A DNA stretch of 64,000 bases from Nitrosopumilus sp. (GTDB lineage Archaea; Thermoproteota; Nitrososphaeria; Nitrososphaerales; Nitrosopumilaceae), in the NCBI GenBank assembly GCA_965205425.1, contig CBDBGZ010000009.1, positions 320,001 through 384,000 of the forward strand. The letters are read 5' to 3'. The position numbers were made by a program. Below are positions 36,001-39,000 of this stretch, piece by piece. The stretch's first letter is position 1; every line of letters begins with the position of its first letter.

Positions 36001-39000
36001 TGCAAATTCATCATAATTTCATAAGACCACATCAAGGGTTGAATGGAGATACACCAGCAGACAGATCAGGCATTATTATACAAGGAGATAATAAATGGAA
36101 AACCATAATTCAAAATGCTAGTAACGCCACGAGAGGGATTTGAACCCACGTACCCGCAGGGCAGAAGTTTAGGAAACTCCCTGAATTGACCAGACTATCA
36201 GATCGTGACATTAGTTAAAATTTTGAAAAGAATAAAAATCCACCTTATCGCCCTGCGGGAGTGATAAGGCTTCATCTTTAGTCTTAATTGTGATTGCAAA
36301 TCACAGGCAAAGACAGAAACCACAAGGCTTGTAATTATAATACTTTAAACATCTAAATAAATAATTTTGGATCTTAGCATCAGTAGGCATGATTAATTTC
36401 TAAAAGCCTCGACACTTACCAGCAATAAGATTTGTAGCTATGCCCCGCTAACTTACCAGTTCCCTTTTTTTAATGTTACAGTTTTTGAGGCTAGAAATGA
36501 TTCTCAAAGAATACTTCATCCAAAGATAACTGACCACCACGTTCAGCAGCATCTGCAGATCTCTTTCCAACTACAACCATCATTACAATCATGTGGTCTT
36601 TTGGCAGATTAATTATATCAGCTAGTTCATCATATTCAAAACCAACCATAGGACAAGAATCAAGACCCATCTGACTAGCTGTTAACATGATTGTTTGAGC
36701 TGCAAATCCACAAGAGCGCATTGCCTCATCTCGTCTATTCTCAGGGCTGTTTTCATATTTTCGGGCAAGAGAGTTTTTCACTAGTTCTTGTTTTTCAGGA
36801 GTATTATTTCTCCAGTATCGTAATGGTTCTTCTTTCCATGCATTAAGATTTCCACATAGTACTACAACTAGAGAGCCGTCTTTTGGTTGGGCTTGATCAC
36901 GGGCGGCTTTGGATATTTTATCTTTTACATCTTGATCAGTAACATAGACAAATCTCCAATTTTGTTGATTATAGCTAGTTGGAGATAGTATGGTTAACTC
37001 TTTTAGTAATTTAATATCTTCAGGTGGCATTTTGTATGATGAATCAAATTTCTTTATTGCACGTCTAGTTTTGATAGCATCAAAGGTATCCATGAAATAA
37101 CAAAAAAATCCCCAAATTTAATTGAATGAAAAGGTAACTGAGCTTAAGATCAGCACTAAGAGTGCTGATGACAGCTCACCACTTAAGATCAGTAACTGAA
37201 AAGTTATCTGATGACAGCAATTTATCTTAAGGTCTGAAACGATTGTACTCAGACGAAAGACTCACCTTTTCTGAATTAGTTATGTGATTTTCTTATTTAA
37301 CGGGTACTACTTTTTCCTACTAATGGAAATCAACACTAGCCACTAGTGTAGTTTCCAGATAGTGTATTTATTAGGCCAAAAGGGATCGCAGAATATCTTG
37401 AAGATTGCAGTAATGGGAATGGGAGTAGCAGGATCATATCTTATGGCCAGACTAAAAAACTCTGAGCACGAAGTTACTGGATATGAGAGAATGAAGGAAG
37501 AAAATCATGATTCTATTTGTGCATGGGGGACAATCAAACCAATTCTAACAGATTTTTGTAAAAAGACTGGAAGAGATTTTGATGATTTTCTAATTCACGA
37601 CGGTAAGGAAATGCATGTGAAAATGAATGACGATGTGAAATTTGATATCGGACTCAAAGGATTATGCACATATGACAAACTAGCACTAATCAAGGATTTC
37701 ATTAAAGATTCTAAAATTATTTACGGCAATCCACCATCAATAGAGGAATTAGAAAAAGAGTACGACATGATAGTTGATTGTACTGGATTTCACAGAGTTT
37801 ATCTCCCAAAATTAGAAGAAGATTTCTTTTTGCCAACATACGAGTACAAAGTAGAATATGAAGACAAGGTTCCATATGATGACTTTTACATTGAACCATT
37901 TCCTGGCATGTCAGGCTATTTCTGGTATTTCCCATTAGGTGAGAAATGGGCACATATCGGAGCGGGTGATTACAATAAACAACACATCAAGGCAACTGAT
38001 GATTTTCTAAAAAAACATGGAGGTAAAATCCTGAAAACTAAAGGTAGACCAATTAGATTAGCAACACCTGATAGATGCAAACCATACTATTCAGGAAAAG
38101 TAGTAGGTGTTGGAGAATCAATTGGAACAGTATACGCATTGTTAGGTGAAGGAATCATTCCATCAATGCAATGTGTAGAGATTTTCTTAGAAAACATGAA
38201 TGATTTCAAAGCATATGAGAAAGCAGTAGAGAAACACTACAAGGTTTATGCTAAAGTGTTTAATTTTGTTCGAGCAAAAATCCACAAAGATTTCAGCTTC
38301 TTCAAAGCATTGCCAGATTTCATTGCAATATTTCTTTACATGAAAAAACATGAAGACAGATTTGGAATGAATATCAAGATTGCAGATTTGATGAAAGTTG
38401 CAAAAGCTTAACTAAAACTTACAGAACCAAAACCTTCACGATTAGTTCTATTTGATGCCATGTTATAATCATAAATGGTAGTAGAATATGCTTTGAGTTC
38501 ATCTTTCATTTGGTCCAAGTTATCTGCAAGGTAAAATCCAGGACAATCACCCGTAAACTGATAGGTTGCATGTACTCTAGCCTTGCCTTTTTCATTTTCA
38601 AGCCAACTTGCAAATGGATAGAGATAGCAGACACCAGGTCTGTCAGGATGCATACTACAGGCTCCCGTATCATCTAAAAATCTACAAGAGATATGGGTTC
38701 CATCATCTGCTTCAGTTTCATCAGTTTTTCTTTTTAGATTAATTGTAGTCATTGTAGTCATTTGTCCTGATGGTCCGGGTTCCTGATATGTAACAGTTAG
38801 AGTTTCATTTTTAATAAAATCTGAAGGTTTTTTGTATTTCAAACCCTTTCCTATTGTAATCAAATCATCAGATGTCAATGGCAATCTACCTTGTCTATCG
38901 CAACAGTTGTGACAGTCAGGCCAAAAGCATTTCCACAGAATATATTTTTTTTCAGAATTCAAATAAGGAACATGAAATACTACATCCTTTACTTTAATTG

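Follow-up and report, generated by a model that had tools for sequence, protein, structure and literature searches.

Results

A tRNA gene and an antisense hairpin inside an IS6-like transposon

Analysis of a 64,000-nt stretch of Nitrosopumilus DNA (the window) revealed a 3,058-bp IS6-like transposon with 67-nt perfect terminal inverted repeats (TIRs), an 8-bp target duplication and a restriction-modification (RM) system. A module consisting of a class-II tRNA gene and a predicted antisense RNA gene lies between the end of the transposase gene and the right TIR, a place at which closely related sibling elements carry little inserted sequence or none. The first-pass annotation had assigned the tRNA to an IS island; the mobile context stands, but the site is the inside of one TIR-bounded transposon and not a loose island. 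The features are, in window coordinates:

33398..33405 (left copy) and 36464-36471 (right copy), no strand: target-site duplication CTTTTTTT
33406..33472, no strand: left TIR, 67 nt, by repeat comparison
33527..34078, plus strand: MunI-type restriction endonuclease, cargo (PF11407)
34075..34728, minus strand: MT-A70 methyltransferase, cargo (PF05063)
34725..34940, minus strand: AbrB/MazE-type regulator, divergent from the transposase (PF04014)
35004..36143, plus strand: IS6/IS240-like DDE transposase, 379 aa (PF13610, E 4.9e-15)
36125..36209, minus strand: class-II tRNA gene on a Ser-type body (G1-C72, G30-C40, G73, U20, G11-C24), anticodon CCU, by ARAGORN and alignment (RF00005 18.6 bits)
36153..36162, minus strand: variable-arm target GCCCUGCGGG (GCCCTGCGGG), by complement search and cross matrix
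36171..36173, minus strand: anticodon CCU, reading AGG
36232..36335, minus strand: predicted antisense RNA of ~100 nt, putative ends, by sequence prediction
36233..36246, minus strand: candidate BRE/TATA promoter of the tRNA (score 4.1), motif start at -37, overlapping the 3' end of the antisense gene
36239..36242, minus strand: putative kink-turn non-bulged strand UGGA, followed by a U run (candidate terminator)
36243..36269, minus strand: antisense hairpin CCUUAUC...GAUAAGG
36250..36259, minus strand: antisense guide CCCGCAGGGC, exact complement of the variable arm, by covariation and duplex prediction
36270..36276, minus strand: putative kink-turn bulged strand (bulge GAU, then GAAG), from kink-turn rules
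36281..36314, minus strand: 5' bulged hairpin of the small RNA (GUCUU...UGUGAU, loop, AUCACA...AAGAC), with G.U-compatible changes and weak covariation
36397..36463, no strand: right TIR, 67 nt, 100% complementary to the left, by repeat comparison

The DDE_Tnp_IS240 transposase, the TIRs starting with GG and the 8-bp duplication place the element among the archaeal IS6-like transposons, which are argued not to be IS6 proper (available text of PMC6807381). The last 19 nt of the transposase gene overlap the 3' end of the tRNA on the other strand. We rejected a reading of the tRNA as an attachment site, since it lies inside the TIRs and a direct repeat of its 3' end is absent among the repeats listed for 33100-36600; in the available text of two papers on insertion sequences (PMC6807381, PMC6563490) tRNA genes are named solely as integration targets. 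Contigs from four of four runs are identical to the window at this site, three covering the tRNA and hairpin and one the tRNA only, indicating that the pair did not arise by misassembly. The transposon boundaries, the 5' hairpin and the kink-turn motif were absent from the earlier annotation, as were the orphan antisense genes and non-Arg anticodons described below.

The tRNA has a serine-type body

ARAGORN called a tRNA-Arg(cct) at 36124-36210 on the minus strand, and the mature gene (36125-36209) has a 7-bp acceptor stem, a 14-nt variable region, G73 and a D loop with GG-U20 and no A20, so that the earlier description of an Arg anticodon on a Ser-type class-II body holds. The separate canonical Arg-CCU gene that it mentioned was likewise found at C9:675463, with a D-loop intron and A20. 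The codon AGG occurs at 3.55 per 1000 codons in the long ORFs of the genome.

G73 and G30-C40, which belong to the archaeal tRNA-Ser identity elements (PMC9976931), are invariant in the six aligned tRNAs of the family described below. The genome encodes a SerRS with an arm-binding N-terminal domain (PF02403), and the long variable arm that marks Ser identity is present, at 13-14 nt in the family versus mostly 15 nt in host Ser tRNAs. Archaeal tRNA-Leu identity calls for A73, whereas the family has G73, an antideterminant for H. volcanii LeuRS. Given these features, together with nearest host tRNAs that are Ser or Ser-type in nine of nine cases and non-Arg anticodons on the same body, we consider serine charging, as proposed in the first-pass annotation, to be likely. 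Two features count against it. The 11-24 pair is inverted, being G11-C24 in all six aligned family tRNAs and C11-G24 in host Ser tRNAs. The Rfam score is low: the 18.6 bits lie below the 29-bit cut-off of RF00005 and are the lowest of 61 matches in the genome, and only two of the seven full-length family tRNAs pass that cut-off. C11-G24 is a Ser determinant in bacteria, and its inversion abolished function in yeast (available text of PMC6827378); Table 1 of a review of tRNA identity leaves the archaeal Ser and Arg sets blank.

The hairpin loop matches the variable arm and covaries with it

The hairpin (CCTTATC...GATAAGG) lies on the same strand as the tRNA, 33 nt before G1, and its loop CCCGCAGGGC is exactly complementary over 10 nt to the variable arm GCCCTGCGGG, in agreement with the exact complement reported ~35 nt upstream. 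The predicted duplex is extended by U44 and three pairs into positions 40-42. Genome-wide, the guide 10-mer occurs twice only, in the arm and in the loop. Among the 59 ARAGORN genes of the genome, that of the window alone has an upstream complement of at least 10 nt within 150 nt, the others reaching at most 8. Dinucleotide shuffles of the 150-nt flank gave such a complement in 125 of 20,000 cases (single-locus 0.6%), so the match by itself is of modest weight, and it is the covariation that carries the argument.

The hairpin insert had been said to co-vary with the arm in relatives, and this is borne out (10/10 in genome G134, 11/11 in genome G144). In six aligned modules every cell of the 10 loop-to-arm pairs is paired, with two-sided changes at all five variable pairs, and in slid controls the paired fraction fell to 41-52%. 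In an accessibility-corrected cross matrix the cognate pair was best in 7/7 rows (-7.1 to -14.7 kcal/mol net of opening costs), cognate duplexes being placed always at the variable arm; guide and arm match over 9-11 nt in cognate combinations and 4-8 nt in the others, for a sample that is small and made of kindred loci. Plain cofolding gave small gains for cognate pairs (0 to -11.6 kcal/mol; window, -2.1), not always the best, and was dropped in favour of the duplex search because it cannot model loop-loop pairing. Together, these sequence comparisons strongly support antisense pairing of the small-RNA loop with the variable arm of the tRNA.

A family of modules with exchanged anticodons

The family comprises 11 loci, seven with a full-length tRNA, two in front of damaged tRNAs and two without a tRNA (the orphan antisense genes L047 and G136). 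In 7/7 full-length members the hairpin matches its own arm over 9-11 nt, with seven different variable loops. Full-length members have the anticodons CCU, UCU, CAU and UAU; UCG is added over the whole family, and G73 is constant. Pairing of the anticodon with an AGG in the hairpin stem was considered and dropped, as this AGG is constant while the anticodons vary. The neighbours of the relatives include transposases, tyrosine integrases, a Pycsar-like pair and a methylase-HNH gene. At the two damaged loci the promoter geometry is degraded; G134a carries a C56U change and G134b stem mismatches. The second G144 copy, noted earlier as a degenerate tRNA that its hairpin does not match, indeed shows the mismatch; it does not refute the pairing, because this tRNA is a recombinant hybrid with broken stems. 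Targets predicted for the hairpins of the G136 orphan and the G144 hybrid were not found elsewhere in the five genomes searched. Searches for family members found no family tRNA lacking a hairpin, and this asymmetry with the orphan antisense genes and those in front of damaged tRNAs fits a toxin-antitoxin (TA) logic. For three Ser-type GAA tRNAs of the same genome, the longest complement within 1.5 kb does not exceed 9 nt; it would thus appear that a Ser-type missense tRNA can be maintained with no antidote of this kind.

Two further scaffolds show antisense to the same arm for Ser bodies with CAG, UGU, UAU and UAA anticodons. One such case, the IS-truncated CAG tRNA at C9:427358 that had been put forward as a second example, was recovered with 11/11 complementarity to the variable arm, 7 nt to the anticodon arm and an IS66 transposase downstream. 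In a second-scaffold pair of G134 both helices are kept through G.U wobbles, which points to pairing at the RNA level.

Many candidates were discarded. Pattern scans left 12 of 16 matches in genomes, 17 of 19 in metagenomes and all but 2 of 103 viral stretches (flanks examined for 80) to chance; a further 1 of 8 matches in the genus and 5 of 5 outside it were dropped, as were 1/3, 1/1 and 7/7 as chance in additional rounds. BLAST matches in G036 and G096 were AT-rich noise and that in G138 a canonical Ser tRNA, and a relaxed-score ARAGORN run with introns was set aside (403 calls, mostly spurious). Below ~80 bits, divergent modules and canonical Ser-GCU tRNAs could not be told apart with covariance model R1.

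Alternative readings of the module

The reading that we favour, with moderate confidence, is an RNA-only TA (addiction) module carried as mobile-element cargo in Nitrosopumilus, in which a serine-charged missense tRNA would be neutralised by antisense masking of its SerRS-binding arm. The pair might still be a TA system if the tRNA-like partner did not decode and acted as a decoy that sequesters SerRS, EF-1alpha or ribosomes and is neutralised by the antisense RNA. Its low Rfam score and inverted 11-24 pair are in keeping with this, as are six allo-tRNA(UAU) variants inactive as suppressors, two of which were still lethal (available text of PMC5389517). However, the family tRNAs keep a paired anticodon stem, with compensatory change, and a 7-nt anticodon loop that has U33 and A37, and the codons read by the anticodons of all scaffolds are sense codons that specify other amino acids, as would be predicted if decoding is important. 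We regard the decoy as unlikely.

We give the same low weight to a cis-acting leader within one precursor, where pairing of hairpin and arm would delay maturation and serve a conditional recoding or stress switch instead of addiction. Full-length members have the hairpin on the same strand, 29-34 nt from the tRNA, with only a short U run between, and the promoter score of 4.1 is modest (canonical median 7.0, 10th percentile 3.8; background 90th percentile 4.0). Yet six of the seven full-length members have a TATA-like site at the canonical distance from G1, orphan hairpin genes persist, and a leader could not work in the analogous Ala-type modules of the same genome, whose antisense is encoded on the opposite strand or downstream, there with a U-run of its own.

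Less probable still is a role in modification, with L7Ae bound to a C/D-like or atypical H/ACA-like small RNA that would guide methylation or pseudouridylation of its cognate tRNA. From 5' to 3' the small RNA is predicted to consist of the 5' hairpin and a kink-turn motif with the antisense hairpin. By the 1b1n/2b2n/3b3n rules (available text of PMC4382518), the 3-nt bulge, G.A and A.G at 1b1n/2b2n and flanking helices of a kink-turn are present by sequence in 11/11 loci, although its C-box-like AUGAAG and D-box-like UGGA belonged to the search pattern for 6 of the 11. The C helix has only 2-4 A-U-rich pairs of 5, and 3b3n is A.G in 10/11. L7Ae-family genes are present. Box C/D guides have RUGAUGA and CUGA boxes, a guide abutting box D and a paired +5 position; here, by contrast, the boxes deviate, 3b3n is not U.U, a 7-bp stem separates guide and D-like box, and the base five nucleotides before that box is unpaired in the extended duplex. 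Atypical H/ACA-like guides have their pseudouridylation pocket below an apical kink-turn, the reverse of the basal kink-turn and apical guide seen here. No Rfam family, guide families included, was found for the small RNA, and no kink-turn motif accompanies the pairing of the two other scaffolds with this arm of the tRNA.

A genuine extra Arg tRNA, charged by ArgRS via C35/U36 and G73 and under antisense dosage control, is in our view very unlikely. Counting the damaged ones, seven of nine family tRNAs do have Arg anticodons, position 20 matters little to yeast ArgRS, and G73 is compatible with Arg identity; but CAU occurs on a near-identical body and UAU on another, host Arg tRNAs have A20 where the family has U20, the canonical Arg-CCU gene exists, the nearest host tRNAs are never Arg, and the antisense is aimed at the arm read by SerRS. 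Neutral debris, a decaying tRNA copy whose match is kept by DNA-level correction of an inverted repeat, is hardly credible: despite the single-locus chance and several damaged copies, compensatory changes in the tRNA stems (acceptor 4/7 pairs, D stem 2/3, in six aligned modules) indicate that the cloverleaf is under selection, the matches tolerate G.U pairs and end at the arm boundaries, and three unrelated scaffolds converge on the same arm.

Discussion

Returning to the missense-tRNA module, we propose that a weak promoter of its own would drive transcription of the tRNA, which would then be matured in the same way as host tRNAs. Judging from identity rules and precedents in yeast and E. coli, host SerRS would recognise G73, G30-C40 and the long variable arm and charge the tRNA whatever its anticodon, so that Ser would be inserted at AGG arginine codons and the proteome poisoned; tRNAs of relatives would place Ser at AGA/AGG, AUG, AUA, UUA, CUG and ACA. 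Ser allo-tRNAs with Leu anticodons are lethal to E. coli (available text of PMC5389517), and a yeast tRNA-Ser(UCU) gave no transformants, changes in the variable arm abolishing mistranslation (available text of PMC6827378). The predicted ~100-nt RNA, presumably transcribed separately and probably bound by L7Ae at its kink-turn, would pair through its loop with the variable arm, as complementarity and covariation suggest. The duplex could extend further into the 3' strand of the anticodon stem, so that the SerRS determinant would be concealed and the tRNA misfolded. On loss of the element or arrest of host transcription, the less stable antidote would decay first and the tRNA would act, stabilising the element or aborting virus infection.

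More broadly, and with confidence evenly balanced, mobile elements of Nitrosopumilaceae may carry a modular, undescribed class of RNA-only addiction or abortive-infection systems. As toxin, a synthetase-promiscuous tRNA with a Ser or Ala body and an anticodon that is swapped freely would corrupt the genetic code. The antidote would be a re-programmable small RNA, here built on a kink-turn scaffold bound by L7Ae, and its loop would cover the arm that gives the tRNA its synthetase identity. Loop and arm would co-diversify like incompatibility groups, allowing several modules per cell without cross-rescue. A literature search found no description of such a tRNA-antisense module. If true, this would be a new toxin class that breaks the genetic code, with an antitoxin masking an aminoacylation identity element; it would account for 'extra' mis-annotated tRNAs in ammonia-oxidising archaea and offer a switchable pair of ~250 nt for use in archaea, either for selection or for controlled mistranslation.

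The carrier shares with archaeal IS6-like DDE insertion sequences, in addition to the features above, a G at TIR position 7 (available text of PMC6807381), but has 67-nt TIRs, a 379-aa enzyme and, as passengers, the RM pair, AbrB and the tRNA-antisense module (compare the thaumarchaeal survey PMC6563490, in part). The small RNA resembles the archaeal kink-turn small RNAs, box C/D and H/ACA guides, in its G.A/A.G tandem with a 3-nt bulge and its tRNA-directed antisense element (available text of PMC4382518), and differs in its non-consensus boxes, a Kt-7-like 3b3n A.G, a guide in the apical loop and a single private neighbouring target. As in type VIII TA systems (CreTA, SdsR-RyeA; available text of TADB 3.0, PMC10767807), both partners would be RNAs encoded side by side, with an antitoxin specific, at the sequence level, for its toxin (cognate best, 7/7); CreTA stabilises its carrier DNA, as is proposed for the present pair. 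Unlike type VIII toxins, which are tRNA-sequestering or mRNA-targeting sRNAs, the proposed toxin is a tRNA acting by misincorporation, and its antidote would pair directly with a 10-nt structural arm, without a Cas effector and not as a cis-overlapping transcript. If TA function were proven, the module would formally be broad type VIII, with no sequence or mechanism in common with CreTA or SdsR-RyeA.

Missense tRNA-Ser of yeast (available text of PMC6827378) is alike in that a Ser body with UCU inserts Ser at Arg codons, is lethal and needs its variable arm; those are laboratory constructs with no natural antidote, whereas the tRNA here is natural, mobile and paired with a putative inhibitor. 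The 8/4 and 9/3 allo-tRNAs (Mukai et al., PMC5389517; review PMC7609411; both in part) share the long arm, the non-Ser anticodons and Ser identity, which is likely for the present family; they are toxic when expressed, are found near transposon genes and TA loci, and in one case overlap a transposase ORF. The family described here differs in being archaeal, with a canonical 7/5 acceptor branch, and in its antisense partner, none being named for allo-tRNAs in the available text of those papers. If our reading is true, natural missense tRNAs such as these, whose long-noted occurrence next to transposons and TA loci has lacked an explanation, would acquire a concrete role, and one open to direct testing.

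The tRNA and its antisense hairpin

The first-pass annotation had described a class-II tRNA with an Arg (CCU) anticodon, G73 and no A20, preceded by a hairpin whose loop exactly complements its variable arm and accompanied elsewhere by a normal, intron-bearing tRNA-Arg(CCU); each of these points held.

36124-36210, minus strand: class-II tRNA, anticodon CCU (ARAGORN; mature gene 36125-36209)
36243-36269: antisense hairpin, 33 nt upstream of the tRNA, loop showing CCCGCAGGGC

The tRNA carries G1-C72, G30-C40, G73, U20 in the D loop and a variable region of 14 nt, and the canonical Arg-CCU gene (C9:675463) has A20 and a D-loop intron. 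CCCGCAGGGC is the exact complement of the variable arm, the 10-mer occurring in the genome only in arm and loop, and among 59 tRNA calls this tRNA alone has an upstream complement of at least 10 nt. Since 125 of 20,000 flank shuffles reached a complement of that length, the locus taken singly is only suggestive. The U50.U64 mismatch is no defect, because the host Ser-GCU tRNA has it too. Contigs from all four sequencing runs agree with the window at the module, and in three both tRNA and hairpin are spanned.

Covariation of guide and variable arm

DNA, covariance-model and pattern searches of 151 genus genomes, together with pattern scans through collections of genomes, metagenomes and viruses, yielded 11 family loci (the window, G134a, G134b, G144a, G144b, G130, G136, L034, L047, L054/L236 and L063/L237; G marks relatives' genomes, L stretches with loci) and none outside the genus in 302 sampled family genomes. 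The homologues annotated earlier in two genus genomes (G134, G144) thus stand, in a family of wider extent. A full-length tRNA is present at 7 of the 11 loci, with anticodons CCU (two), UCU (three), CAU and UAU. All seven variable loops differ and each is matched by its own hairpin over 9-11 nt, bearing out the claim that the insert co-varies with the arm; off-diagonal matches reach 4-8 nt, and when the cost of opening is counted, 7/7 rows have the cognate pair as their best. At L034 the body is near-identical to that of the window, the anticodon is CAU, and loop and guide are both changed. Among six aligned members, which are non-independent kin and from whose very sequences the pairing was derived, 10 guide pairs were paired in all cells, 5/5 variable pairs showed two-sided change, and sliding the partner as a control lowered pairing to 41-52%.

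Two loci are damaged: in G130 the tRNA is broken by a 33-nt duplication and the hairpin matches over 7 exact nucleotides plus one mismatch, and G144b, already annotated as non-matching, has a hybrid tRNA without a hairpin match. L047 and G136 hold orphan antisense genes without a tRNA, and no family tRNA lacking a hairpin was found across the family searches. The 3' half of a G144 hybrid tRNA (L018/L243, G144:C1 ~2222196-2222279) resembles the second-scaffold tRNA of G134 (L269), which suggests that odd tRNAs of two kinds recombined at the anticodon loop. A Pycsar-like pair (guanylate-cyclase-domain protein and PycTM effector; L242:2574-3799) lies just upstream of the G144a module.

The transposon carrying the pair

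The pair, previously placed in an IS island, is indeed in a mobile context, as part of one 3,058-bp transposon rather than a loose island; the element has an 8-bp duplication and is bounded by terminal inverted repeats (TIRs).

33406-33472: perfect TIR, 67 nt
36397-36463: perfect TIR, 67 nt

It encodes a MunI-type nuclease, an MT-A70 methylase, an AbrB/MazE regulator and an IS240-type DDE transposase. In close siblings (transposases 66-86% identical) the end sequence follows directly after the transposase or after a short other insert, and a sibling with 239 different letters in the module slot was seen in 3/4 runs; the ~270-nt module is therefore inserted cargo. Such cargo is uncommon: in scans of 29 and 20 other transposase neighbourhoods, an odd tRNA accompanied by antisense turned up in 2 of the 49. 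Two of the 29 belong to genomes flagged unpublished; no tRNA was present in them, and none of the positive claims draws on them.

Three ATAACCTA-containing repeats with 28-nt spacing (34939-35024), in the stretch that separates the AbrB gene from the transposase gene divergent to it, are candidate regulator sites. A copy of the right TIR with ~70 nt inside it (C7:96090-96229, 94-95% identical) has a small Cys/His-rich ORF inward in place of the RNA module, suggesting a common inward promoter driving different cargo. More IS genes (DDE_Tnp_1, a split IS630-like element) lie ~4 kb downstream of the transposon, at 40029-43534.

Other scaffolds and odd tRNAs

A second hairpin type lies upstream of Ser(UGA)-like bodies, complementing variable arm (11 nt) and anticodon arm (7-8 nt), as had been claimed for the truncated CAG case.

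C9:427358: CAG, truncated
G142: UGU, 3' end replaced
G134: UAU, G.U pairs preserving both helices

A third type, in G119, has a 13-nt arm complement upstream of a UAA tRNA, convergent with a transposase of the window's IS240-type family. For the Ala-type tRNAs of the genome, the antisense is directed at the anticodon arm. Seven short tRNAs have Ala-like acceptor ends (GGGC/GGGG...TCCA) and anticodons AAG, GAA or GTC; each has an 8-16 nt complement to its own anticodon arm nearby, in most cases with a hairpin and a U run after it.

C4:165846, C4:166055, C9:454069: Ala-like tRNAs, divergent antisense
C9:254430, C9:711260, C8:191679, C2:54916: Ala-like tRNAs, downstream antisense

At L191 (G139:C1 ~40116-40187), close to a related transposase, an Ala-type GAA tRNA has a 13-nt antisense copy in divergent orientation. 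In another genus, beside the window's transposase family, L172/L247 (G286:C13 ~1050620-1050693) is a tRNA with G3.U70, an 8-nt anticodon loop (CCUC) that could make it a frameshift suppressor, and an 11-nt downstream complement of the anticodon arm. Further odd tRNAs are a long-arm body of Leu type whose anticodon is ACC, another Ala(CGC)-like gene besides the first and a long-arm or intron-bearing Val(CAC) (C9:1042184, C3:28093, C7:71771), and a G144 CGC tRNA (L243:2291-2366) with a 7-nt upstream anticodon complement. Near-duplicate Glu-CTC, Thr-TGT, Ser-TGA, Leu-CAA and Tyr-GTA genes on different contigs (C4/C9/C5/C6/C8) are consistent with the estimated contamination of 5.23%; a second strain may be the source of some small contigs.

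Charging, mechanism and alternatives

On balance we lean towards an RNA-only toxin-antitoxin system. Once transcribed and serylated, the tRNA would insert serine at AGG codons (3.55 per 1000; AGA 23.7) and be toxic, unless the antisense RNA neutralised it by masking the variable arm and unzipping positions 40-44; the module would then be addictive. In yeast, tRNA-Ser(UCU) gave no transformants and an altered arm lost mistranslation, as reported in PMC6827378.

PMC9976931 names the variable arm as main SerRS determinant, describes G73 and G30-C40 as strong in recognition by bacterial-type and archaeal SerRS, and lists G73 as a haloarchaeal LeuRS antideterminant. The family has this Ser element set and lacks A73, in 9/9 comparisons the closest host tRNA is a Ser or Ser-type one, and the genome encodes a SerRS with an N-terminal arm-binding domain. 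Against serine charging, the family has G11-C24 in place of C11-G24, an inversion that abolished function in yeast (PMC6827378), and the window tRNA scores 18.6 bits with RF00005, 2/7 members exceeding the cut-off. Also counted against a serine toxin are three class-II Ser-type GAA tRNAs of this genome (C8:120792, C9:254931, C9:901280) that have no antisense >9 nt within 1.5 kb; downstream, two of them resemble each other in sequence, where a small convergent ORF may lie. A toxin acting as a non-decoding decoy is unlikely.

The predicted small RNA has, as conserved features, a 5' bulged hairpin, A-rich linker, AUGAAG, guide hairpin and YRGA then U residues, and is placed on the tRNA's strand because its changes are G.U-compatible in that sense; internal covariation is weak (2/19 pairs). 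With a matrix from 45 canonical tRNA genes, the best promoter site lies at -37/-38, the canonical distance, in 6/7 full-length members, at weak scores (4.1-4.7 vs canonical median 7.0 and background 90th percentile 4.0); both damaged loci score -0.4. This predicted geometry modestly favours two transcripts, tRNA and small RNA. A leader acting in cis, or a switch for conditional recoding, is as doubtful as the decoy. AUGAAG and UGGA predict a kink-turn in 11/11 loci, a count unbiased for the first five only since the search pattern for the other six contained the motifs; ten have 3b3n A.G, the Kt-7 type folding in magnesium (PMC4382518). A modification guide is still less probable. A true Arg tRNA is improbable: the family lacks A20, an Arg element that is marginal in yeast (PMC9976931). 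Debris we dismiss almost entirely.

Comparison with known systems

By analogy, the module would work like a type VIII toxin-antitoxin pair and is a putative member, its proposed mechanism differing from those of CreTA and SdsR-RyeA as outlined in PMC10767807. The family resembles allo-tRNAs in identity and neighbourhood but is neither 8/4 nor 9/3 (PMC5389517, PMC7609411). A missense tRNA paired with its own antisense RNA was not found described in the full-text literature searched, whose scope leaves out most subscription titles and the supplements, those of PMC5389517 being possibly relevant. For ordinary archaeal tRNA genes, cis-antisense transcripts have been reported, in an arrangement unlike the present one (PMC6523106). 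The tRNA-antisense pair is real, strongly co-varying and of an undescribed kind, and we infer its function.
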